Sequence record: OK040907
Direction: 5' to 3' (one strand)
DNA: 64,000 nucleotides
From: Enterobacteria phage Ac3
Positions within the stretch are counted from its first letter, which is position 1. Each line of letters starts with the position of its first letter. Below, in pieces: positions 8,413 through 63,426 of the stretch. The notes under the pieces were generated by a model, which saw only the letters and a list, made by a program, of their open reading frames with translations, was not told the DNA's origin and made no database searches. Position numbers and translations under genes: made by a program.

Positions 8413-9978
8413 ATGACTATCAAAACTAAAGCTGAACTTTTGAACAAATGGAAGCCATTACTGGAAGGTGAAGGTTTACCGGAAATTGCTAATAGCAAAC
8501 AAGCGATTATCGCTAAAATCTTTGAAAACCAGGAAAAAGATTTCCAGACAGCTCCGGAATATAAAGACGAAAAAATTGCTCAGGCATTCGGTTCTTTCTT
8601 AACAGAAGCTGAAATCGGTGGTGACCACGGTTATAATGCTACTAACATTGCTGCAGGTCAGACTTCTGGCGCGGTAACTCAGATTGGCCCAGCTGTTATG
8701 GGTATGGTACGTCGTGCTATTCCTAACCTGATTGCCTTCGATATTTGTGGTGTTCAGCCGATGAACAGCCCGACTGGCCAGGTATTCGCACTGCGCGCAG
8801 TATACGGTAAAGACCCAATCGCTTCCGATGCTAAAGAAGCATTCCATCCAATGTATGGTCCAGATGCAATGTTCTCTGGTCAGGGTGCTGCTAAGAAATT
8901 CACAGCTCTGGCTGCTAGCACACAAACCACAGTAGGTGATATCTATACTCACTTCTTCCAGGACACTGGTACTGTGTATCTGCAAGCTTCTGCTCAAGTA
9001 ACAATTAGTGCAAGCGCAACTGACGCAGCTAAATTAGATGCTGAAATTAAGAAACAAATGGAAGCTGGTGTACTGGTAGAAATCGCTGAAGGTATGGCTA
9101 CTTCTATCGCTGAACTCCAGGAAGGTTTCAATGGTTCTACCGATAACCCATGGAATGAAATGGGCTTCCGTATCGATAAGCAAGTTATCGAAGCTAAATC
9201 TCGTCAGCTGAAAGCTGCTTACTCTATCGAATTAGCACAGGACCTCCGCGCTGTTCACGGTATGGATGCTGATGCTGAACTGTCTGGCATTCTGGCTACA
9301 GAAATTATGCTGGAAATCAACCGCGAAGTTGTTGATTGGATTAACTACTCAGCTCAGGTTGGTAAATCTGGTATGACCCTGACTCCGGGTTCTAAAGCTG
9401 GTGTATTTGACTTCCAGGACCCAATCGATATTCGTGGTGCTCGCTGGGCAGGTGAATCCTTTAAAGCTCTGTTGTTCCAGATTGACAAAGAAGCAGTTGA
9501 AATTGCTCGTCAGACTGGTCGCGGCGAAGGTAACTTCATTATCGCTTCCCGTAACGTAGTTAACGTTCTGGCTTCAGTTGATACCGGCATTTCTTATGCT
9601 GCACAGGGTCTGGCTACTGGCTTTAACACTGATACTACCAAGTCAGTATTTGCTGGTGTTCTGGGTGGTAAATACCGTGTATATATCGACCAGTATGCTA
9701 AACAGGATTATTTCACTGTAGGTTATAAAGGTCCGAACGAAATGGATGCTGGTATTTACTACGCTCCATATGTAGCTCTGACTCCACTGCGTGGTTCTGA
9801 TCCGAAGAACTTCCAACCAGTAATGGGATTCAAAACTCGTTACGGTATCGGTATCAACCCATTTGCAGAATCCGCTGCTCAGGCTCCGGCTTCTCGCATT
9901 CAGAGTGGTATGCCTTCTATCCTGAACAGCCTTGGTAAGAACGCTTACTTCCGCCGTGTATATGTTAAAGGTATCTAA
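8413..9978 (+). CDS. 23: Major capsid protein
   Basis: 521 aa; contains the g23 marker primer regions (gatatttgtggtgttcagccgatga); biased codon usage typical of a highly expressed gene. Confidence 0.97.
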   Translation: MTIKTKAELLNKWKPLLEGEGLPEIANSKQAIIAKIFENQEKDFQTAPEYKDEKIAQAFGSFLTEAEIGGDHGYNATNIAAGQTSGAVTQIGPAVMGMVRRAIPNLIAFDICGVQPMNSPTGQVFALRAVYGKDPIASDAKEAFHPMYGPDAMFSGQGAAKKFTALAASTQTTVGDIYTHFFQDTGTVYLQASAQVTISASATDAAKLDAEIKKQMEAGVLVEIAEGMATSIAELQEGFNGSTDNPWNEMGFRIDKQVIEAKSRQLKAAYSIELAQDLRAVHGMDADAELSGILATEIMLEINREVVDWINYSAQVGKSGMTLTPGSKAGVFDFQDPIDIRGARWAGESFKALLFQIDKEAVEIARQTGRGEGNFIIASRNVVNVLASVDTGISYAAQGLATGFNTDTTKSVFAGVLGGKYRVYIDQYAKQDYFTVGYKGPNEMDAGIYYAPYVALTPLRGSDPKNFQPVMGFKTRYGIGINPFAESAAQAPASRIQSGMPSILNSLGKNAYFRRVYVKGI

Positions 9979-10061: not shown

Positions 10062-11345
10062 ATGGCTAAAATCAACGAACTTCTGCGCGAATCAACCACA
10101 ACGAATAGCAACTCAATCGGTCGCCCAAATCTCGTTGCTTTGACTCGCGCTACCACTAAATTAATATATTCTGACATTGTAGCAACGCAAAGAACTAATC
10201 AACCTGTTGCTGCTTTTTATGGTATCAAATACCTTAACCCAGACAACGAATTTACATTTAAAACTGGTGCTACTTATGCTGGCGAAGCTGGATATGTAGA
10301 CCGAGAACAAATCACAGAATTAACAGAAGAGTCTAAATTAACTCTCAATAAAGGCGATTTATTCAAATATAATAATATCGTTTATAAAGTATTAGAAGAT
10401 ACACCATTTGCTGATATTGAAGAAAGTGATTTAGAATTAGCTCTTCAGATTGCAATTGTTCTTTTAAAGGTTCGTCTATTTTCTGACGCGGCGTCAACAA
10501 GCAAATTTGAAAGCTCTGATAGTGAAATTGCGGATGCTAGATTCCAGATTAATAAATGGCAAACCGCAGTTAAATCTCGTAAACTTAAAACTGGTATCAC
10601 AGTTGAATTAGCACAAGATTTAGAAGCAAATGGATTCGATGCTCCTAATTTCTTGGAAGATTTGCTTGCAACTGAAATGGCAGATGAAATCAATAAAGAT
10701 ATTCTGCAGTCTTTGATTACAGTATCAAAACGTTATAAAGTTACAGGAATTACTGATACTGGATTCATTGATTTGAGTTATGCATCTGCACCTGAAGCTG
10801 GTCGTTCATTATACCGAATGGTATGTGAAATGGTTTCGCATATCCAAAAAGAATCAACTTATACAGCAACGTTCTGTGTTGCTTCAGCTCGTGCCGCTGC
10901 GATTCTTGCTGCATCAGGTTGGTTAAAACATAAACCAGAAGATGATAAGTATCTTTCACAAAATGCCTACGGGTTCTTAGCTAATGGTTTACCGCTTTAT
11001 TGCGATACTAACAGCCCATTAGATTATGTAATCGTTGGCGTAGTAGAAAATATCGGTGAAAAAGAAATTGTTGGATCAATTTTCTATGCTCCGTATACAG
11101 AAGGTCTCGACTTAGATGACCCTGAACATGTAGGTGCATTTAAAGTTGTTGTTGATCCAGAAAGCTTGCAACCGTCTATCGGTTTATTAGTTAGATATGC
11201 TTTATCTGCAAATCCTTATACTGTAGCAAAAGATGAAAAAGAAGCAAGAGTAATTGACGGTGGAGACATGGATAAAATGGCGGGTCGTTCAGATTTGTCT
11301 GTTTTATTAGGTGTTAAATTACCAAAAATTATTATCGATGAATAA
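10062..11345 (+). CDS. 24: Capsid vertex protein (gp23 paralog)
   Basis: 427 aa, order and length as T4 gp24. Confidence 0.93.
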   Translation: MAKINELLRESTTTNSNSIGRPNLVALTRATTKLIYSDIVATQRTNQPVAAFYGIKYLNPDNEFTFKTGATYAGEAGYVDREQITELTEESKLTLNKGDLFKYNNIVYKVLEDTPFADIEESDLELALQIAIVLLKVRLFSDAASTSKFESSDSEIADARFQINKWQTAVKSRKLKTGITVELAQDLEANGFDAPNFLEDLLATEMADEINKDILQSLITVSKRYKVTGITDTGFIDLSYASAPEAGRSLYRMVCEMVSHIQKESTYTATFCVASARAAAILAASGWLKHKPEDDKYLSQNAYGFLANGLPLYCDTNSPLDYVIVGVVENIGEKEIVGSIFYAPYTEGLDLDDPEHVGAFKVVVDPESLQPSIGLLVRYALSANPYTVAKDEKEARVIDGGDMDKMAGRSDLSVLLGVKLPKIIIDE

Positions 11346-12379: not shown

Positions 12380-12391
12380 AATTAATCCTTA

Positions 12392-12670
12392 AAATGTAAT
12401 TTCTAACCAATCACCATCACGCTGATCACTATTGACTTTAAAATTAAATCCTTCTTTTCTCAGCCAATCACCAATTTCTTCAGTAATCAATTTATCACGA
12501 GCAGTACAATAATAACTAAAATATGTTTTACCTTGTTCAGCTGCTTTATTAGCAAGTTCTGAAAAATCTTTAATAAAACACTCTAGCTTAAACTGTTTAC
12601 TTTTTAATGCTTTTTCACGTAATTGATTAGCAAAAGATTCATTTTCATAAAGATTACACAGTGCCGTTTT
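12392..12670 (-). pseudogene. 93-codon open frame with protein-like translation but no ATG/GTG/TTG start; possible N-terminally truncated 24.2-like gene
   Basis: Manual translation ends ...RDGDWLEITF* 12 nt before rnlB start; frame opens exactly where the GC-rich block ends. Confidence 0.35.
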
Positions 12671-12869
12671 TCACCTTTTTGTTGATGTGACGTTTGCGGT
12701 AAACCACTTTTTCGCGGGTTTCGAACTTGTTTTTAGCGGTCATGGCACGTGCCCACAGAACGGCAACTTCTTTGGCCTGCAGGTTCAGTTCACGAGCAAT
12801 TTCGATGAAGCTTTTACCGGATTCGTGCAGGGTGAACACTACAACCTCGGTGCGCATAATCAATCTCAT
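12654..12869 (-). CDS. Small protein with helix-turn-helix-like segment; GC3-rich codon usage
   Basis: 71 aa ORF (67 aa from second ATG at 12857); codons ctg/cgt/acc/gaa dominate, unlike neighbours. Confidence 0.5.
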   Translation of the reverse strand: MRLIMRTEVVVFTLHESGKSFIEIARELNLQAKEVAVLWARAMTAKNKFETREKVVYRKRHINKKVKNGTV

Positions 12870-18674: not shown

Positions 18675-18700
18675 ATTTAGCTCCTTTATTTATCATATCT

Positions 18701-25284: not shown

Positions 25285-25315
25285 TTTGTGTTCCTCATGT
25301 TATGTCAGTAAGACT

Positions 25316-25345
25316 ACTATAACACAACATGAGGGACTTGTAAAC
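25316..25345 (-). promoter_or_regulatory. Early promoter: -35 GTTTAC, 18-nt spacer, -10 TATAGT
   Basis: Minus-strand GTTTAC at 25340-25345 and TATAGT at 25316-25321; part of the 54-bp repeat. Confidence 0.55.
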
Positions 25346-27402
25346 TACATTTTGAACTTTTTAGACATTCCGTTGATGTTAACCAAAGAAGCTAAGATTT
25401 GAGAAACTTCGTTTTCCTCTTCTTTTGATTCTTCTACAAGGAATTGATTAAATCCAGCCATTGGACGAACTTCACCAGTTTCCATTAGATGGTCGCCATC
25501 ATATACTGATTCTTCTAATTGTTCAGAAGGAGGAACGATTGTACCTTCGATTAGATACTTGTTATAAGCAGTTTCTTTCATAAAGTAAGTACTTACTTTA
25601 TTAATCTTCAGTAAAATTCCACGTGGTAGAATAACTTCAGCTTCTGATGGAAATCCTGATAAATGACCTGGAACGATAACTTTAACTCGTTCAGCTCCTT
25701 TAATTACCATACCCACGCTAGTTTCAGCATCTTCATTAGCATATGTAGAATGACTACCCATATGCATCAAATCTTCTGCATCAACGGAACCTTCTCCTTC
25801 ACCAGAAAATACTGCTCCGGAATTATCTAAGGCCATATAATTTTTACCATACTCACCAAAGATATTTGGTTTAAGTGATGTCGATACGAAGTTCTTGAAA
25901 TAGAACATTTTATTTTCAATGTTATGACGCAAAGTTTTAAAAGTAACTTCTTGTCCACGGTAAAGTGTAGTTCCTGGAGGAAGAACTGAACCTTTAGCGA
26001 ATGCAGAATCCAGCGTCTCAATATGTTTAATAGCTCGTTCCATATATTCTTCACGTGTAGAATCAGGTTTACCTAAAAGGAATGAGTTCATTTCAACATA
26101 CGAATCTGCGCAATAATCTTCAATTACATCAGACTCAGCCTGAGTCAATCCTTTTGGAGTTACTTCAGTGCTTGCATATTCATACGCCTGAGCAGCGGAT
26201 TCATCAATTAATTTATAAATTCCATTCATTACAAATTGAATAATAGCTGTCTTTTCATCTGGTGTAGCTTTAGAACCTTTAACTAAATCATTGATAATTT
26301 TCTTAATAACATCAAAACTATTAGAAATATTAATATCAGCAAGATCGCTTAAAATTTTATCAGTTTTGTAATTAAAGAAGTCTTTATTCTTTAAATATTC
26401 CTGGGAACCTTGATATGATGTATCGCTCTGCAACTTGATAGATGGATCGCGTAAACGCGCATGGGCTAATGCAATATGATTTCGGAAACTTTCTAGTTCA
26501 TAATCGTTAGATTTAAAACGAGAAGCACTTCTCATACCGCCGATAGCTCCTTTGCCGAAGTTTGAACCAATCTGAATAACGCCAGAGTTCATTGGTCCTT
26601 CTGCTTTATATACCGGAACTTTAGATTCAAATTCTTGATATTTCTTAGCAGCGAAGCTATCACCCTGAAGTGAAGCATCAACAGTAGAATATTGAGCTTG
26701 TGCTGCTAATCGACGACTAATTTTAGTTTTCTGAATAACAGCTTGATCCGTACGCTTATCATTTTCTAAAGCAATAGAAGCAGCAACTGCGACAGCTTTA
26801 GGAACAGCATTACCTGTTTTAACGTCTACATAAACATCACCGACTTTCGATTCAACTTTTGTGAATAACTCAGTTGAAATAGGAGGTACACCTGGAATGT
26901 CTTCTAAATTGGCATTTTTACGGTAAACCATAATATATGCATATTTCTTATCATAGTCCCAGATTTCCTTTAAAAGAACATATCGACCTGCTCCTTTAGT
27001 ACGTACTAAACGGTCAGCAATAACTTGCATTTGACGAGCAGCGCCATTTGTTTTACTTTTTAGTACGCGGAATAGGCATGCATCAATTTTATACTGTTTC
27101 ATTGTTTGAAGAGCAGTATCAAAAACCGCATTAATGACACCAATTGGATTTCCACCCAAGTTTTTAAGCTTAACTAACGATAATTTCTCATTAACACCTA
27201 TCATTACGATATGCATCATTTTGTCGCCTGGCTTAACGTTTTTATTCGTATCACCGCCAGAGGTGTATGTACAAAATCGAAATCCAGGAAGAACGCTTTC
27301 TTCACCGGCTTGAATAGCAAAAATTTGAGGTATTTTATGCTTAGGATTTAAGTTAACAACCGGCGCCGAAGCGCCGTCAAATAATTCTGTAATAAGTTCC
27401 AT
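25345..27402 (-). CDS. Alt-like ADP-ribosyltransferase paralog (alt.-1 position)
   Basis: 685 aa; shares N-terminal MELITELF and C-terminal ART motifs (YRGQ, FVSTS, EAEVILPRG) with the adjacent alt gene. Confidence 0.85.
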   Translation of the reverse strand: MELITELFDGASAPVVNLNPKHKIPQIFAIQAGEESVLPGFRFCTYTSGGDTNKNVKPGDKMMHIVMIGVNEKLSLVKLKNLGGNPIGVINAVFDTALQTMKQYKIDACLFRVLKSKTNGAARQMQVIADRLVRTKGAGRYVLLKEIWDYDKKYAYIMVYRKNANLEDIPGVPPISTELFTKVESKVGDVYVDVKTGNAVPKAVAVAASIALENDKRTDQAVIQKTKISRRLAAQAQYSTVDASLQGDSFAAKKYQEFESKVPVYKAEGPMNSGVIQIGSNFGKGAIGGMRSASRFKSNDYELESFRNHIALAHARLRDPSIKLQSDTSYQGSQEYLKNKDFFNYKTDKILSDLADINISNSFDVIKKIINDLVKGSKATPDEKTAIIQFVMNGIYKLIDESAAQAYEYASTEVTPKGLTQAESDVIEDYCADSYVEMNSFLLGKPDSTREEYMERAIKHIETLDSAFAKGSVLPPGTTLYRGQEVTFKTLRHNIENKMFYFKNFVSTSLKPNIFGEYGKNYMALDNSGAVFSGEGEGSVDAEDLMHMGSHSTYANEDAETSVGMVIKGAERVKVIVPGHLSGFPSEAEVILPRGILLKINKVSTYFMKETAYNKYLIEGTIVPPSEQLEESVYDGDHLMETGEVRPMAGFNQFLVEESKEEENEVSQILASLVNINGMSKKFKM

Positions 27403-27405
27403 GAT

Positions 27406-29502
27406 TTATCCTTGAACGAACTTGTAAGGCATGTTTGTAATATCTATGCAAGACGCAATAATTCCAAGAGATGATTCTACTTTCTGTTTAACGTTTGATG
27501 AAACAAATGATGCAAAGTCAACTCTGTCTTCTATTTCAGTATCACCTGTCATTGCAACTACTTCACCGGTTTCCATTAAATGGTCTCCGTCATAGATTAC
27601 CGATTCGGTGAGCTCTTCCGTGGTCATAACTTCAGCTTGAATGAGTTTTGTATTATTAGATGTTGTTCCGTCATTATTAGAAGCATCAGTTATTTTATTA
27701 ACTTTGACCATCAATCCACGCGGTAGAATAACTTCAGCTTCTGTTGCTATTCCGAGACTTCCTGGATATACAACATTAACTTTATGAGCTCCATCAATTG
27801 CCCATCCTATTTGAACTTTAACGTATTCAGGATTTTCTTTATACGCTCTTATTTCGTTTGGATTAATAGTTATTCCTTCTTCATTTTTATCAACTGTTAA
27901 TTCATTGCGAGCTTCTGGTTCTAAAAGACCAATACCAGCATGTGTGATTCCAAAACGTCCAAAAATGATAGGAGTTAAAGAAGTAGATACAAAATTTCTG
28001 AAGTAGAACACTTTATTTTTAACTAACGCTTCATATATAGGAGCAGTCATACTTTGAGCACGATAAACTGTAATGCCTTCTGGTATACGGTCACCATTTT
28101 CAAAAGCTGAATCTAAGTTATTTATAGCAGATTCAATTTCTTTTTCACTCATTACATCATATCGTTCTGGATTGTAACGACCTAAAAGAAGATTATTGAT
28201 GTCAGTATATCCTGAACCACAATATTCTCTAATGCCACGCTTTTGTGATGGAGTATATTTAGAACCATCGCGGGCAATAGTAATATCAATCATTGGACCA
28301 GCACCAATTCCAGAAAAACTGTAAATCATTCGTTTGAGGAATTTAGTTTTTGCTGCGTTCCAGGAATTTTTAGTTATTTCTTCCCAGACTTCATCTGGTT
28401 GTCCTTTACGATTTTTATTATGATTAGCAAGCCATTTATCTTTATAATCTTCAAAGAATTGATTTACAGCTGCTGCGTATTTCTCTAAACATTTTATTGA
28501 AGTAGTTGGTTCATTTTTAATTGCATTAAAAATTACTTCTTTAATTTTTTCTGAAACTTCACCGACTTGACTCATTGGAAAGAATTTATAATCATAGTGA
28601 AGTTCATCTGCCGTTCCTTCAGCAATAATTTTTGCTGCCTTTGTTTTAGAAGCTAATGAATTAATTCCAATTTTCATTTCTTCTGCTTCGGGAATTAAAG
28701 GTGCAGTAGCTGGTTTATTAAAATTAGCTGCTGTAGATTCATACTTCTGGAATAATTCACTTTCAAATCTAGAAGATTCCAATGACTGACTTTGTGCAAT
28801 TGCTCTACGGGAAATTTTAACTTTAACGATTACGGCTTGGTCAGAACGTTTATCATTTTCTTGTGCAATAGATGCAGCAATTGCCTCATTTTTGGTTACT
28901 TGAGCTCCAGTATCTTTATTGATATAAACATCACCGACCTTCGATTCAACTTTAGTAAAGAGCTCGGTGCTAATTTCTGGAACTCCTGGAATGTCTTCTA
29001 GTGATACATTTTTACGATGTATAAGAATATATGCATACTTTTTATCGTAATCCCAGAGTTCCTTAAGAAGGACGTATCTGCCACCTGAACGACTGCGGAT
29101 GAGTCTATCAGCAATAAGTTGAATTTGTCGAGCTTGACCTGCGGTTTTAGACTTAAGAATACGAAGCATGCAGGCATCAATTTTATATTGACGCATTGTT
29201 TGCATTGCAACAGTAAAAACTGAATTGATATAATTAATCGGGCTTGGACCAAGACCTTTTAATTTAGCAATTGAACCTTTAGCAGTTAATGTAAAAGGAA
29301 CAATATGCATCATTTTATCGCCCATCTTTAAATCACGATTAGTATCACCTCCAGATGTATAGGTACATAAACGAAAGCCTGGTTGTTCAATTGCATCATC
29401 AACATGAACTGAAAAAATTTGTGGTATTTTCTTCTTTGGATTTAAGTTTGTAATCGGAAGAGTAGTATCTTCGTCAAATAATTCTGTAATGAGTTCCATC
29501 AT
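27406..29502 (-). CDS. alt: Alt ADP-ribosyltransferase (injected with DNA, modifies host RNA polymerase)
   Basis: 698 aa (697 from second Met); matches recalled T4 Alt N-terminus; ART motifs YRAQ, FVSTS, EAEVILPRG. Confidence 0.9.
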   Translation of the reverse strand: MMELITELFDEDTTLPITNLNPKKKIPQIFSVHVDDAIEQPGFRLCTYTSGGDTNRDLKMGDKMMHIVPFTLTAKGSIAKLKGLGPSPINYINSVFTVAMQTMRQYKIDACMLRILKSKTAGQARQIQLIADRLIRSRSGGRYVLLKELWDYDKKYAYILIHRKNVSLEDIPGVPEISTELFTKVESKVGDVYINKDTGAQVTKNEAIAASIAQENDKRSDQAVIVKVKISRRAIAQSQSLESSRFESELFQKYESTAANFNKPATAPLIPEAEEMKIGINSLASKTKAAKIIAEGTADELHYDYKFFPMSQVGEVSEKIKEVIFNAIKNEPTTSIKCLEKYAAAVNQFFEDYKDKWLANHNKNRKGQPDEVWEEITKNSWNAAKTKFLKRMIYSFSGIGAGPMIDITIARDGSKYTPSQKRGIREYCGSGYTDINNLLLGRYNPERYDVMSEKEIESAINNLDSAFENGDRIPEGITVYRAQSMTAPIYEALVKNKVFYFRNFVSTSLTPIIFGRFGITHAGIGLLEPEARNELTVDKNEEGITINPNEIRAYKENPEYVKVQIGWAIDGAHKVNVVYPGSLGIATEAEVILPRGLMVKVNKITDASNNDGTTSNNTKLIQAEVMTTEELTESVIYDGDHLMETGEVVAMTGDTEIEDRVDFASFVSSNVKQKVESSLGIIASCIDITNMPYKFVQG

Positions 29503-29551
29503 ATCCTCTCTAGTGTTTATTCTATTTATAAAATTAAAGGCCCGAAGGCCT

Positions 29552-37800: not shown

Positions 37801-39190
<1,390 letters not shown>

Positions 39191-39194
<4 letters not shown>

Positions 39195-40564: not shown

Positions 40565-40592
40565 AAAGTCCTCATGTTATGTCAGTAAGACT

Positions 40593-40622
40593 ACTATAAC
40601 ACAACATGAGGGACTTGTAAAC
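40593..40622 (-). promoter_or_regulatory. Early promoter: GTTTAC, 18-nt spacer, TATAGT (upstream of alc)
   Basis: Minus-strand GTTTAC at 40617-40622 and TATAGT at 40593-40598; part of the 54-bp repeat. Confidence 0.55.
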
Positions 40623-48944: not shown

Positions 48945-49184
48945 TTAAGCTTTCTTGGCAACTTTCCAGTCAGCTTTGAACTGATCGACGTCGCTGTGAT
49001 GGATCCAGAAGCCGGAGCTGGAACCGTCTTCATAGAGTGGGCAACCGTCACATTCATCTTCCCAACCCATATCACGCAGGAGATGTTCTGCCTTTTCGAT
49101 CAGCTCGGAATCTTTACCAATGATGTTGAAGTACCATTTGCCGCGTACTTCAGAGTCTTTAATGGACTGACGCTGCAGACGCAT
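48945..49184 (-). CDS. Small Cys-containing protein with GC3-rich codon usage
   Basis: 79 aa from MRLQRQ with gaggag RBS and own early promoter; the 109-aa track ORF starts upstream. Confidence 0.55.
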   Translation of the reverse strand: MRLQRQSIKDSEVRGKWYFNIIGKDSELIEKAEHLLRDMGWEDECDGCPLYEDGSSSGFWIHHSDVDQFKADWKVAKKA

Positions 49185-49504: not shown

Positions 49505-49891
49505 TTAGGCCTTAAAAGTTTTTCGCAAAAGTTCAATGATTTCATCTACATTGTTTTCGTCAACAATGCAGTGAATTTTTGTTACGCCAGAAACTATACC
49601 TTCATTAGCGGATTGAGGCTTTTCTAAAGTTACCTCAGTAAAGTATTTGAATTCTTCAGAGTAAATCTCAAAATACGTCTCAAGTGGGCCACCCGCCATG
49701 TATTCAGTACCATCTTCCATAGTTACACGTACCACACATTCACCAGCACAATCATCACTTTCCATTTCATCTACAACAAAACTAGGTCCGTGCTTCTCTA
49801 TTAAATTTAGCATCATTACATTGCAACGGCACTCGTTAGCAAAGTCATTTTTAAATAAAGGGTTAATGATATAAGTTTTTCCAACTTCCAC
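49505..49891 (-). CDS. Hypothetical protein
   Basis: 128 aa ORF. Confidence 0.55.
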   Translation of the reverse strand: MEVGKTYIINPLFKNDFANECRCNVMMLNLIEKHGPSFVVDEMESDDCAGECVVRVTMEDGTEYMAGGPLETYFEIYSEEFKYFTEVTLEKPQSANEGIVSGVTKIHCIVDENNVDEIIELLRKTFKA

Positions 49892-49937
49892 TTTGATTTC
49901 CTCATTTTAACGGGGCTATCAAATAGCCCCTTGATAA

Positions 49938-50168
49938 TTACTGTTCGATGAGACCCATGTAGAATTCCGCATCTTCGGAGTCCATACCGTCGCAGTATTC
50001 GTTAGCCATGAAGCGGGTCAGGTCCTCCAGTGGACCCTCAATAACAATGCTAAAGTTACAATAGTTCGGGTCATCATGGATGGAAGTAATAGACAGCTCC
50101 GGGTAACGGTTGCGGATAATTTCCTCGATGTATTCGAAATCAACGATGTCGATGTCTACTTTAGCCAT
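49938..50168 (-). CDS. Small acidic protein with GC3-rich codon usage
   Basis: 76 aa from MAKVDID with aggaaa RBS and own early promoter. Confidence 0.55.
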
Positions 50169-50211
50169 ATTATTTTCCTCTTTGATCATCAGCAGTATTG
50201 CCGATAGTTGT

Positions 50212-50241
50212 ATAGTACCATGGAAGGACAAGGATGTAAAC
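50212..50241 (-). promoter_or_regulatory. Early promoter: GTTTAC, 18-nt spacer, TACTAT
   Basis: Minus-strand GTTTAC at 50236-50241 and TACTAT at 50212-50217. Confidence 0.5.
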
Positions 50242-50314
50242 AGTTTTGTGAAAAAATTTTTGAAATAAAAAAGGGGACCTCTAGGGTCCCCAATTAATTA
50301 GTAATTATAATCTA

Positions 50315-51223
50315 TTACAGGTCGTTCAGGAGGTCATCCAGGTCGGTATCGTCGGCGCTGGAAGAGGAGCCGCTAGAGGAAGACATGAAGTCATCTTCGG
50401 TTTTAGTGTTAAAATCGTCAACGTTAAAGGCGTCCAGGTCATCCGCTACCTTATCGGCTTTCTTAGCCGCAGTAGCCGCAGCACCGCCCATCACAGCAGT
50501 GCCCATAACCTGACCGAACTTGGTGTTGAGTTCCTCAAAAGATTTAAATTTATCTTTGGAGGTCATCTCAGACAGATCTACCATCTGCTCAAACAGTTCT
50601 TTTTGGAAAGATTCGTCATCGATGTTCGGGATAGCAGACTGGTTCAGAAATTTGCTCTCGTCGTAATTGGAGAAACCAGAAACCTGTTTAACCTTCAGAA
50701 CGAAGTTGGCACCCTCCCACGGGCAGGTGACGTCGACCGGGGTTTCACCCATCTCCACGTCCACCGCAATCATAGCGTTAATTTTATCCCAGATTTTCTT
50801 ACCAAAGCGGTATTTGAAAACCTTACCCTCGTTTTCTGGCGCAGCTGGATCCTTTACAACCAGGATGTTAGCCCAGTAAGAGGTTTTACGTTTCACCAGG
50901 CCGTATTCTTTATTGTCGGTATTATACAGATCGTTTTTGGAAATGTACTGACACACCGGGCAAGAGTCGTAGTCGCCGTGGGTGGAAGAACAGTTTTCGA
51001 TGTACCATTTGCCGTTTTTCTTAAAACCGTGGTTCACCAGGATAGCGAACGGAGCCTGTTCGTCATTTTTGCTCGGCAGGAAGCGGATCACCGCCTGACC
51101 GTTGCCCGCGTTGTCCAGTTTCAGTTTCCATTCGCCTTTGTCCTCAGAGCTGAAGCCACCTTTGTTGCCCGCCAGCTTGGCCATCTGCGCAGCCAGTTCT
51201 GCCGTGCTCTTACGCTTGAACAT
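50315..51223 (-). CDS. 32: Single-stranded DNA-binding protein
   Basis: 302 aa; zinc ligands H/C/C/C in HGF...ENC...DSCPVC; acidic C-terminus; operator directly upstream. Confidence 0.95.
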
Positions 51224-51255
51224 TTTTATTTCCTTTTTAATTTAATTAACAGTTG
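51224..51255 (-). promoter_or_regulatory. Gene 32 translational operator (AU-rich unstructured leader)
   Basis: Minus-strand ttaattaaattaaaaaggaaataaaa immediately 5' of the ATG, as in T4 gene 32 autoregulation. Confidence 0.6.
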
Positions 51256-51306
51256 GTGCTATGACGATGTATGACCTCATAGCTGGTCAGTGAGATAATT
51301 ATAATT

Positions 51307-51314
51307 TATTTATA
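51307..51314 (-). promoter_or_regulatory. Late promoter TATAAATA upstream of gene 32
   Basis: Plus-strand tatttata about 85 nt upstream of the gene 32 ATG. Confidence 0.4.
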
Positions 51315-51322
51315 ATAAGCAA

Positions 51323-51976
51323 TTAATACTTACAAGATTTCACAGTTTCAATAAAAACTTTTTTAGCTTCCTGTGAATCGATATTTAAAATTTTTCTATA
51401 AGCTTTTAACTTTATAGAATAATTGTTCCAAACTAAATTATCAGTTTGTTCATCATGTTTATCAATTATATTTAAAAACGAATCAAGCAAGATAAACGTC
51501 TCAAACGAAATTATGTTCGATTGCAGAAGTTTAAAAATATAACTTGATTGAACTTTTGGATTATATTCAAAAATTTCTTTAAAAGCAGAAACTTCAACTT
51601 TTTTACTAAAATAATAAATGTTGCGAATATCTTCTTCAAACTTAAATTTAATTTGCTTTAAGCGTCCGATATATTCACGATAAAACACAAGTGCATCAGC
51701 GTCAGAGATGTCACCAATCCAAGCATCTTGGTTAGCAACCAAATTACTTATAAAGATTAAAGCAAGTTCCTTTAATTTATATTTTTCTGATAACTTCTGA
51801 AAAAAATACTTATCCCTTCGCTTTTGATAAGCGGCATCAGACACCCGCATGCACCAATTATACTTAATTACATCATACTTTCCATTCATATGTTGTTTTA
51901 TCATTAAGTATAATTTATAAACTGATTTACCATCAATGTATCTTTCACCACCAGCAGGCATGCGGAGTTTAATCAT
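51323..51976 (-). CDS. 59: Helicase loader (gp41 loading protein)
   Basis: 217 aa; matches T4 gp59. Confidence 0.9.
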   Translation of the reverse strand: MIKLRMPAGGERYIDGKSVYKLYLMIKQHMNGKYDVIKYNWCMRVSDAAYQKRRDKYFFQKLSEKYKLKELALIFISNLVANQDAWIGDISDADALVFYREYIGRLKQIKFKFEEDIRNIYYFSKKVEVSAFKEIFEYNPKVQSSYIFKLLQSNIISFETFILLDSFLNIIDKHDEQTDNLVWNNYSIKLKAYRKILNIDSQEAKKVFIETVKSCKY

Positions 51977-59309: not shown

Positions 59310-62300
59310 ATGGCTACTTTAAAACAAATACAATTTAAAAGAAGCAAAACCGCAGGAGCACGTCCTGCCGCTTCAGTATTAGCCGAAGGTGAATTGGCTA
59401 TAAACTTAAAAGACCGTGTACTTTTTACTAAAGATGACCAAGGAAATATTATTGATCTGGGTTTTGCTAAGGGCGGTAGTATTGACGGGAATGTTATTCA
59501 TATAGGAAACTATAACCAAACTGGTGATTATACTTTAAATGGCGCATTAACTCAGACAGGTAATTTTAATTTAACTGGTATTGCTCGAGTAACTCGCGAT
59601 ATTATTGCCGCTGGGCAGATTATGACTGAAGGCGGAGAACTTATTACAAAAAGTTCAGGTACAGCGCATGTTCGTTTTTTCGATGGCAATAGTCGCGAAC
59701 GCGGAATCATTTATGCCCCGGCTAATGATGGTTTAACTACACAAGTACTTAATATCAGGGTTCAAGACTATGCCGCTGGTAGCGAAACGACTTATCGATT
59801 TTCAGGCAGTGGCCTATTTACTTCACCTGAAGTATCAGCATGGAAATCTATTTCGTCTCCACAAATTCTGACCGATAAAGTTATTACAAATGGGAAGAAG
59901 ACAGGCGATTATGATATCTATTCATTATCAAATAACACTCCAATGGCAGAAGGCGAAACGGCTATTAACCACCTCCGTGTTATGCGAAATGCTGTAGGAG
60001 CAGGTATTTTCCACGAAGTTAATGTTAATGACGGAATAACCTGGTATTCCGGACATGGCTTAGACACTTATCTTTGGTCGTTTAACTGGGCCGGTGGATT
60101 GAAAGCTGGTCATTCTATTGCTGTGGCCTTCCTCACGGTTCTAAAATTATTCAGAAATGGGCACGGCTTCTATTGCTTTAGGAGAGTAGATGATACCGGA
60201 TTTAAATGGCATCAGGATGGATATTATTTCAGCGTTAATAATGGAACAAAAACATTTTTATTTAGTCCTAGTGAAACAACTAGCCTAAGAAAATTTGTAG
60301 CTGGATATTCTACTAACGGAACCGATTTAACGACTCCTCCAACTGAAAACTATGCTCTTGCTACTGTCGTGACATATCACGATAATAACGCGTTTGGAGA
60401 TGGTCAGACTCTTTTAGGATATTATCAAGGCGGTAATTATCATCACTATTTCCGCGGTAAAGGTACTACAAACATTAATACTCACGGCGGTTTGTTAGTT
60501 ATTACTCCCGGTAATGTAGATGTGGTCGGCGGCATGGTTACCATTGATGGTAAAAATTATGCTTCTAGTGTGCTTTTTAAAGGAAATACTACAGGATATA
60601 GTTCAGTTGATAATATAGAGCTCAAAGTTTGGGGTGACACTTTTAATACAGTAGGTGGTACTCGTAAAAACGTAATGGAAACATCTGATGCTACTGGCTG
60701 GATGCATTATATTCAACGAACTACAGCAGGTAAAGTTGAGTCCTATTTAAATGGTACCATGAATGTAAATGAAAGCATCAACGTCAGTAAAGAAGTTAAC
60801 GCCTCTGGCACTATTGCTAGTAATGCTGTCAATGCGCTTCGCATTTGGAATGCAGATTATGGAGCTATTTTTAGACGTTCAGAAGGAAGTCTTCATATTA
60901 TTCCAACTGCTTATGGTGAAGGCAAAAATGGTGATATCGGTCCACTTCGCCCGTTTAGTATGGCTTTAGATACCGGTAAAGTTACTATTCCAGATTTACA
61001 ATCAAGTTACAATACGTTCGCTGCGAACGGCTATATTAAATTTGTTGGTCATGGAGCGGGTGCCGGCGGTTATGACATTCAATATGCTCAAGCGGCTCCT
61101 ATTTTCCAGGAAATTGATGGATGCTGTAAGCAAATATTTATCCCTATTGTTAAACAGAAGTTTTTAAATGGTAAAGCCGTTTGGTCTTTAGGTACTGAAA
61201 TTAATTCTGGTACATTTGTTTTACATCATCTGAAAGAAGATGGACACAAGGTCATACATCAAGATTTAATGCTGACGGTACAGTTAATTTCCCTGATAAC
61301 GTTCAAGTCGGTGGTGGTGAAGCTACTATTGCTCGTAATGGTAATATTTTCTCGGATATTTGGAAACTGTTTACTTCTGCTGGAGACACTACAAATATTC
61401 GGTGATGCAATAGCTACTCGTGTTGCTAAAGAAGGTGATACGATGACCGGTAGGTTGACTTTATCAGCTGGAAATGATGCACTTGTTTTAACTGCAGGCG
61501 TGGGTGCTTCATCACACATCCGTAGTGATGTAGGTGGTATAGGTAACTGGTATATAGGCAAAGGCGGCGGCGACAATGGTCTAGGTTTTTACAGTTACAT
61601 TACACAAGGCGGTGTATACATAACAAATAACGGCGAAATAGCGCTTTCTCCTCAAGGTCAAGGAACATTTAATTTTAATAGGGATCGCCTTTATATAAAT
61701 GCTAGTCAATGGGTTGCACATAAATCTGGCGCTTGGGGTGACCAATGGGGCTTAGAAGCTCCTGTATTTGTGGATTTTGGTAGTGTCGGTAATGATAGTT
61801 ATTATCCTATTATTAAAGGAAAATCTGTTATTACGAATGAAGGATACATATCTGGCGTTGATTTTGGTATGCGTCGCATTACTAATACATGGGCACAAGG
61901 TATTATTCGTGTAGGTAACCAGGAAAACGGTTCTGACCCACAAGCTATCTATGAATTCCACCACAATGGAGTTATGTATGTTCCTAACATGGTTAAAACC
62001 GGAGCAAGATTATCGGCTGGCGGTGGTGACCCGGTGTGGACTGGACCATGTCTTGTTATTGGTGATAATGTATCCGGATTAGTTCATGGTGGTGATGGGC
62101 GAATTAACATGGTTGCAAATGGAGCGCATATTGCTTCGTGGTCTTCATCTTATCATTCTCATCCTGGCCTTTGGGATTCAAACGGTGCTTTGTGGACGGA
62201 AGTTGGCAAAGCAGTTATTTCTCATGGTCATTTAGTTCAGGCGAATGACAACTATTCAACATATGTCCGCGATGTTTATGTCCGCTCTGATATTCGTGTT

Positions 62301-62621
62301 AAAAAGAACCTCGTTAAATTTGAAAATGCTTCTGAGAAGCTTTCTAAAATTAACGGTTACACTTATATGCAGAAACGTGGAACAGATGAAGAAGGTAATC
62401 AGAAATGGGAACCTAACGCAGGTTTGATAGCTCAAGAAGTTCAAGATATTTTACCAGAATTCGTTGAAGGTGACCCGGATGGTGAAGCTTTACTTCGTTT
62501 GAACTATAACGGTGTAATTGGTTTAAATACAGCTGCAATCAATGAGCATACTGCAGAAATTGCAGAACTTAAGTCAGAGATTGAAGAGCTTAAAAAATTA
62601 GTTAAATCATTGTTAAAATAA
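59310..62621 (+). CDS. 37: Long tail fibre distal subunit with C-terminal intramolecular chaperone-like domain; internal out-of-frame segment
   Basis: 1103 aa; conserved N-terminus [13 protein letters not shown]; C-terminal coiled coil; about 52 codons at 61245-61401 read in a shifted frame. Confidence 0.88.
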
Positions 62622-62626
62622 TAAGA

Positions 62627-62640
62627 GGGGCTTCGGCCCC
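62627..62640 (+). terminator. Hairpin ggggcttcggcccc after gene 37
   Basis: Perfect GC stem with UUCG loop. Confidence 0.5.
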
Positions 62641-62652
62641 TTGGAGGTTTAT

Positions 62653-63426
62653 ATGGCAGTTGAAGGACCGTGGGTAGGATGGTCTGCGAGGGTACAGACT
62701 GGAGATCCTTGGATGGGTGGTGCCGCGCAGAGATTGAGAATGGGAATTCCGTTTTGGATGAGTAATATGATAGGTCGATCTGTTGAAATAATTCACACGC
62801 TTGGAGCAGACCATAACTTCAATGGTCAATGGTTCCGAGATAGATGTTTTGAGGCAGGTAGTACACCTATAGTGTTTAATATCACTGGAGATTTAGTATC
62901 ATATTCTAAAGATGTTCCTTTATTCTTCATGTACGGAGATACACCGAATGAATATGTTCAGTTGAATATACACGGCGTAGCGATGTATGGCCGTGGCGGT
63001 AATGGCGGTAGCAATAGTCCTGGTTCAGCTGGAGGTCATTGTATTCAAAACGATATTGGTGGGAGACTAAGAATTAATAATGGCGGAGCTATTGCAGGCG
63101 GTGGCGGCGGTGGCGGTGGCGGTAACAGGGGTCGACTAGTATTTGGTGGTGGCGGTGGTCGCCCATTCGGTAGTGGCGGGTCTTCCCTCTCTCACATGAG
63201 TGCTGGTGCAACCGCCGGCACCATTTACGCTCCGGGTGCAGGATCTGTCGGTGAGGGGTCTCTTAGTGCATATACAGGCGGGTCTGGTGGTGAAGTTGGC
63301 TCCGCAGGAGGTAGAAATACTCACGGTACCGGTACAGAATATGACGGCGGAGCTGCTGGTTATGCTGTTATAGGGTCGTCTCCAACGTGGATAAATGTTG
63401 GAGCAATATATGGTCCAAGAGTATAA
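62653..63426 (+). CDS. 38: T2-type receptor-recognising adhesin with glycine-rich motifs
   Basis: 257 aa from MAVEGPW with ggagg RBS; poly-Gly stretches; conserved [22 protein letters not shown]. Confidence 0.85.

Follow-up and report, generated by a model that had tools for sequence, protein, structure and literature searches.

Gene 32 and four small coding sequences of a T4-like phage sequence are synonymously recoded, almost certainly by artificial back-translation

Large-scale synonymous rewriting of phage genes in their own genomic context has been described for the T7 capsid gene (PMC5592923) and, over the whole genome, for the ORFs of PhiX174 (PMC7881332). In both cases codons were de-optimised in situ with the protein kept, in order to attenuate the phage. 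For gene 32 of T4-type phages, the best described element is the translational operator of its mRNA. A 5' pseudoknot, which nucleates the binding of gp32, is followed by an unstructured stretch of more than 40 nt, rich in UUAAA/UAAA and containing the ribosome-binding site, and the whole operator lies 5' of the AUG (PMC535899). How does the gene 32 locus of the present phage compare with these systems? The window (the whole stretch of DNA analysed, 64,000 nucleotides of sequence record OK040907) carries a gene 32 for which a preliminary description had left two readings, an unusually strong host-adapted codon bias or a synonymous recoding of the ORF. Judged from its sequence, the gene is almost certainly an RB51/RB68-like Tequatrovirus gene that was artificially back-translated (codon-optimised), and four more CDSs of the window would have been treated likewise.

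50315..51223, minus strand: gene 32 CDS (gp32 single-stranded DNA-binding protein), 302 aa plus TAA, rewritten synonymously over codons 2-302

The product is a gp32. It matches Pfam PF08804 (E=5.9e-67, 226 bits against a cut-off of 26.8) and phrog_224, 'single strand DNA binding protein' (E=2.8e-117). In tblastn its residues 1-276 are 100% identical to gp32 of RB68, RB51, wV7 and other phages, and direct translation shows that the full-length protein equals RB68 gp32. The gene also sits in its conserved position between gene 59, encoding the helicase loader, and frd.3, in the order of the RB68 annotation (59 at 51323-51976, 32 at 50315-51223, frd.3 at 49938-50168). What is unusual about it is the composition of the coding DNA. 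The GC3 is 0.617 versus 0.287 in the native RB68 gene. Those CDSs of the window that were left unmodified, 75 in number, average 0.244 (sd 0.047) with a maximum of 0.356 in gene 23, which places gene 32 about 8 sd higher. In sliding windows, GC drops from 0.44-0.50 over the ORF to 0.26 directly upstream. The preliminary description had reported a GC3-rich ORF up to its start and stop codons, with CTG or CTC for every Leu, GAG for about 40 percent of Glu and frequent GCG, CCG, GGC, AGC and ACC, and the counts agree with it: the enrichment spans codons 2-302 of 303, Leu is encoded by 17 CTG and 2 CTC with zero others, GAG accounts for 8 of 19 Glu codons (42%), and the five other codons occur 9, 6, 10, 6 and 9 times, respectively. 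The usual high-expression bias that it had seen in gene 23 (8413-9978) was likewise recovered (GCT 0.74, GGT 0.80, CGT 0.55, AAA 0.77 and GAA 0.98).

The same description had listed four restriction-like sites in gene 32 as compatible with recoding. GGATCC (50847), GTCGAC (50732) and AGATCT (50574) are indeed present, and are new relative to the native gene; TCTAGA is absent. Are these sites a trace of cloning? We rejected them as such, since three matches to common 6-cutters in 909 nt are close to what chance would give, and for this reason they are uninformative either way. In the other recoded genes, restriction sites were gained and lost haphazardly.

How far is this gene from its natural counterparts? 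We infer the native sequence from RB68 (KM607004.1) and RB51, as the true parent genome is not in the collections, and against this reference gene 32 has 79.1% nucleotide identity. The 190 substitutions change 169 of the 303 codons and fall at 167 third, 13 first and 10 second positions. All of them are synonymous, and the protein is 100% identical. They are also strongly directional, with 128 AT>GC against 25 GC>AT changes (binomial p=7e-18). A near-identical gene in natural T-even genomes would have spoken against recoding, and none was found: a blastn search of 50,697 phage genomes gave 1,492 records with a match, the closest of them at 80.2% identity. For the RB68 allele, in turn, 20 phage records lie at >=99% and 477 at 95-99% identity, hence 497 at >=95%. 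Blastn found no match to the recoded gene in PLSDB plasmids or in 5,426 complete E. coli genomes, and an exact scan for a 40-mer of it found no copy in IMG/VR, JGI metagenomes or GTDB genomes. A 44-mer of recoded gene 24.3, one of the further genes described below, is equally absent from IMG/VR. The gene 32 of Mosigvirus JM17 illustrates what natural divergence looks like at a similar distance: at 81.5% nucleotide identity, 40 codons differ nonsynonymously, 8 columns of the alignment are gaps and the GC3 is 0.306. The window copy thus combines an identical protein with DNA far outside natural allelic variation, and its longest run of identity with the native gene is 23 nt. Alignment, directionality and the absence of a natural near-match together support the reading of gene 32 as synonymously recoded and reject that of an unusually strong host-adapted bias.

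Gene 32 is not alone. The 14 kb around it are closest to RB68 and RB51 (97.9% overall), and their alignment to RB68 (KM607004.1) is gapless with 295 mismatches, all of which lie in three blocks coinciding with three annotated CDSs. Over the whole window there are five such blocks, namely 24.3, RB68_220, frd.1, frd.3 and gene 32. The four additional genes are recoded in the same manner.

49938..50168, minus strand: frd.3 CDS (Pfam Phage_FRD3), 51 nt differences, 77.9% identity, GC3 0.597 vs 0.247 native, protein identical to that of RB68
48945..49184, minus strand: frd.1 CDS (DUF5417), 54 nt differences, 77.5% identity, GC3 0.537 vs 0.287, protein identical
38892..39194, minus strand: homologue of RB68_220, 80 nt differences, 73.6% identity, GC3 0.604 vs 0.248, protein identical
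12654..12857, minus strand: gene 24.3 CDS (DUF2774), 53 nt differences, 74.0% identity, GC3 0.588 vs 0.279, protein identical
12665..12667, minus strand: start codon of gene 24.2, changed from ATG to ACG as collateral of the recoded 3' end of 24.3

The RB68_220 homologue is a small ORF between pseT and pseT.1 (phrog_2364). Each recoded CDS carries 51-190 substitutions, all within its annotated coordinates, and the pooled count is 428 substitutions changing 370 of 629 codons (stops included) with 0 nonsynonymous changes. The 75 other mapped CDSs show zero differences from RB68. GC3 in the five genes is 0.54-0.62 versus 0.25-0.29 in the native versions, and the direction seen in gene 32 holds for the whole set (273 AT>GC against 56 GC>AT, p=2e-35). 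The changes begin at codon 2-4 and end at the last sense codon or at the stop in 5/5 genes, so that they are confined to the CDSs. Gene 24.3 shows how literally the annotation was followed. Its recoding begins at the annotated internal ATG (12857), and the four in-frame codons upstream (12858-12869) are untouched. At its other end, 24.3 overlaps 24.2 (12654-12667, minus strand), and the rewriting turned the native 24.2 N-terminus MEQYD into TALCN. Gene 24.2, 92 aa long in RB68, is reduced to a 33-aa remnant ORF with a TTG start (12389-12490).

Outside the recoded blocks, the window departs from the RB68 record at a few places. At the start of gene 24 (10062-10100, plus strand) CAACGAA occurs once in the window and twice in the RB68 record. 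The single copy gives gp24 a normal N-terminus, MAKINELLRES, which is also found in 290 other records, and the extra 7 nt in the RB68 record frameshift the 5' end of the gene, which is annotated there from a downstream ATG. At position 18699 the window has one extra C, which lies between gp26 and gp51, a short distance upstream of a late-promoter-like TATAAATA motif. The tail-fibre/adhesin module gp37-gp38 (59310-63426, plus strand) is of the Ac3 type and not RB68-like. Gene 37 is 100% identical to that of Ac3 (AF060870) and gene 38 differs from it by one 3-nt indel; relative to RB68, the two proteins have 79% and 66% aa identity, respectively, with GC3 of 0.27-0.32 (gp37 0.268). The gene 36 side is RB68-like, and identity to RB68 returns exactly at the gp38 stop. 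The module may reflect natural mosaicism or a swap, conceivably an engineered one; the backbone, too, departs from the RB68 record at sites that look natural. Taken together, the CAACGAA copy, the base at 18699 and the Ac3-type gp37-gp38 suggest that the parent was probably a natural relative of RB51/RB68. A 45-mer of the window's gp38 has no copy in IMG/VR, and the nearest complete genomes are those of RB68 and RB51. The comparison with RB68 also returned two secondary BLAST matches: an exact direct repeat of 54 nt, at 25292-25345 (alt.-3/alt.-2) and 40569-40622 (alc/rnlA), and a paralogous stretch of ~700 nt with 68% identity in alt.-2 and alt (26719-27412 and 28813-29507).

What kind of process produces such changes? 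Multi-nucleotide changes affect 38 codons, and the codon-box switches comprise 25 Ser TCN<->AGY, 5 Arg AGR>CGN and 11 Leu TTR>CTN. The Ser switches are impossible by single synonymous steps. If every degenerate codon had been redrawn independently of the original one, 239.7 +/- 8.8 of 594 would be expected to stay the same, and 227 did. The recoded genes hence keep no memory of the native codons, which is the behaviour of back-translation and not of mutation from the native sequence. The codons chosen are those of highly expressed E. coli genes. Usage in the five CDSs correlates at r=0.949 with a table compiled from 29 MG1655 genes (ribosomal proteins, EF and rpoA); the corresponding values are 0.752 for gene 23 of the phage, 0.654 for E. 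coli genes with weak expression and 0.424 for the five genes in their native form. The recoded genes make no use at all of 17 rare codons (TTA, TTG, CTT, CTA, ATA, AGA, AGG, CGA, CGG, GGA, GGG, TCA, TCG, AGT, ACA, CCC and CCT). TAA is the stop in 5/5 recoded CDSs, while three native versions, those of frd.1, the RB68_220 homologue and 24.3, end in TGA. The exact table is not matched by the empirical one, as CTC makes up 20% of Leu in the recoded genes and 5% in the high-expression table. The set of retained codons probably corresponds to the 'class II' table of Hénaut and Danchin, cut off at ~8-10%, as offered by gene-design programs. No TATAAATA motif occurs in the five CDSs, either native or recoded, and no embedded late promoter was lost.

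The rewriting stops at the gene borders, and the regulatory elements on both sides of gene 32 are those of RB68.

51224..51323, minus strand: native 5' control region of gene 32, 100 nt upstream, 100% identical to RB68
51307-51314, minus strand: late-promoter-like TATAAATA within the gene 32 upstream region
~51258-51288, minus strand: hairpin/pseudoknot-forming segment, with a predicted GCUAUGA...UCAUAGC hairpin
51224-51257, minus strand: AU-rich UUAAA/UAAA operator with Shine-Dalgarno GGA, 5' of the gene 32 AUG
50263..50291, minus strand: native intrinsic terminator of gene 32, GGGGACC-CTAGA-GGTCCCC followed by TTTTTTATTT (terminator scan)

The preliminary description had recognised a classic T4 operator in front of the recoded ORF, and this was correct: TTAATTAAATTAAAAAGGAAATAAAA-ATG lies directly 5' of the gene 32 ATG (51224-51249, minus strand) with the native sequence of RB68. 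The AU-rich UUAAA/UAAA stretch and the ribosome-binding site precede the AUG, and the segment ending in CUGUUAAUUAAAUUAAAAAGGAAAUAAAAAUG is 100% identical to RB68. A folding method that does not model pseudoknots predicts the GCUAUGA/UCAUAGC hairpin where it is expected, in the native RNA as well as in that of the window. A Rfam scan of 49800-51800 for the gene 32 operator family gave only a chance-level lncRNA match (E=0.4), Rfam having no model for this operator. Downstream, the 146-nt spacer between gene 32 and frd.3 is identical to RB68 over its whole length. The spacer between genes 59 and 32 (51224-51322) is only 99 nt long, including the TATAAATA at 51307-51314, and therefore has no room for a segG/32.1 homing-endonuclease ORF. 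This differs from T4, which carries that ORF between 59 and 32 (PMC535899).

What would the recoding do to gene 32? As the operator region is untouched and lies entirely 5' of the AUG, the function of gp32 and its operator-mediated autogenous repression should persist. The body of the mRNA is predicted to be more GC-rich and more structured. The calculated MFE of the gene 32 CDS is -281 kcal/mol when recoded versus -213 kcal/mol when native, and for the region from -75 to +45 it is -25.7 versus -15.4 kcal/mol. We considered that a GC-rich 5' coding region might occlude the ribosome-binding site and found no support for the idea, given that the predicted unpaired probability from -20 to +15 is 0.77 in the recoded and 0.64 in the native RNA. 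A further change concerns tRNA use. AGA, ATA, TTA, GGA, ACA, TCA and CAA are codons decoded by T4-encoded tRNAs; the first six do not occur in the recoded genes, and CAA occurs once.

Where does the recoded sequence come from? It is man-made, i.e. designed or computer-edited, and not the outcome of natural adaptation. In the proposed mechanism, codons would have been taken from a usage table resembling that of strongly expressed E. coli genes, rare codons being left out, and everything outside the annotated CDSs (late promoter, pseudoknot, operator, ribosome-binding site and terminator) would have been left native. The edit would have been keyed to CDS coordinates as given in a database and would have been blind to overlaps, as suggested by the internal ATG of 24.3 and the lost start of 24.2. 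The five genes are functionally unrelated and were chosen without an evident rationale. We lean toward an automated edit, because 24.2 was damaged, the annotated coordinates were adhered to, restriction sites were not avoided and the genes form no related set. Does the window then represent a phage that exists? A real and viable engineered T4-like phage, with an RB51/RB68-type backbone, Ac3-type tail fibres and a synthetic gene 32 and four ORFs in situ, is conceivable, although we would place it on the unlikely side. The plasmid, phage, E. coli, IMG/VR, metagenome and GTDB collections hold no construct record for the recoded genes, and literature searches gave no publication on a T4-like phage with these genes recoded or on the engineering of RB68 or Ac3.

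Among the alternatives to a deliberate or automated edit, the one that survives best is a chimera of assembly or consensus, in which the assembly of a native phage took up reads of codon-optimised expression or complementation plasmids for the five proteins. The signature is indeed that of gene-synthesis software, and many laboratories have codon-optimised gp32 expression constructs, RPA being one of their uses (PMC12357552). Such a merger would have to join ORFs that are 74-79% identical to the native ones seamlessly and in frame to native flanks, and to do so at five loci, which is not expected. Vector sequence is found at none of the junctions, and plasmids that carried native flanks would be editing templates, in other words deliberate engineering. 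The seamless joining of five ORFs and the maximum identical run of 23 nt in gene 32 make a chimera very unlikely.

Could the codons have evolved in place? A strong host-adapted bias in gene 32 is a natural first thought, considering that gp32 is abundant and highly expressed, that the recoded codon usage looks like that of highly expressed E. coli genes and that gene 23 shows some natural bias with a GC3 of 0.356. Adaptation of this kind would have had to accumulate 190 substitutions with zero amino acid changes and zero changes in the flanks. Around 500 natural Tequatrovirus alleles lie within ~5% of the native gene, and none approaches the window copy. Four of the recoded genes are tiny, of unknown function and without a reason for high expression; the Ser box switches, the missing memory of native codons and the destroyed start of overlapping 24.2 add to the case against it, and we give adaptation in place practically no chance. 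Horizontal replacement of the five genes by those of a divergent phage, or by a host-resident copy from a GC-richer codon environment, could appeal to the mosaicism of T-even genomes and to the Ac3-type gp37-gp38 in the RB68-like backbone of the window itself, and is nevertheless as good as ruled out: a donor 21-26% divergent in DNA would not give five proteins 100% identical to RB68, natural orthologues that divergent differ by 13-20% in amino acids and have indels, the edit boundaries equal the CDS ends in 5/5 genes, and none of the collections searched (phage, plasmid, E. coli, IMG/VR, metagenome and GTDB) contains a donor. Natural divergence brings nonsynonymous changes, indels and related alleles, and the gp37 and gp38 of the window, compared with those of RB68, show that such divergence alters the protein; here, none of the 370 changed codons is nonsynonymous. 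The evidence from alleles, divergence, codon memory, codon table, annotation and searches, when combined, excludes both natural adaptation and natural allelic replacement.

The recoding found here is a well-known human practice, codon optimisation, and not a new feature of nature. As the genome is artificially modified, analyses of codon usage, GC content or evolutionary rate that include the five genes would be misleading. The case also offers a compact quantitative recipe to tell designed recoding from natural codon adaptation, based on six signals: an identical protein whose codons keep no trace of the native choice, switches between codon boxes, TAA as the only stop, boundaries that match the CDS exactly, collateral damage where ORFs overlap, and no occurrence in collections of natural sequences. 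If the phage is physically real, it would test whether the gene 32 coding sequence has a role beyond the protein, through its AU-richness, low structure or dependence on phage tRNAs, and it could reveal such a role in gp32 autoregulation, mRNA stability and phage fitness. If it is real and viable, gene 24.2 would be dispensable.

How does the locus stand relative to what has been described? The closest natural counterpart is the native RB68/RB51 gene 32, with the same protein, operator region, terminator and position between gene 59 and frd.3; the difference is in the coding DNA, which is 21% divergent and has a GC3 of 0.617 instead of 0.287. With codon-optimised synthetic genes it shares the unchanged protein, the independent redraw of codons, the removal of rare codons, the TAA stops and the correlation with E. 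coli high-expression usage (r=0.95). Here, however, the synthetic ORFs stand in their native phage context with native promoters, operator and terminator, and not in an expression vector. Unlike the products of gene design, the recoded sequences do not avoid cloning sites and they damage an overlapping gene, 24.2. The T7 and PhiX174 recodings are likewise large-scale, synonymous and in situ. In those studies the codons were de-optimised, whereas here the change is toward the optimal codons of the host, and it affects a T4-like myovirus at five scattered genes, one of them essential and four of unknown function.
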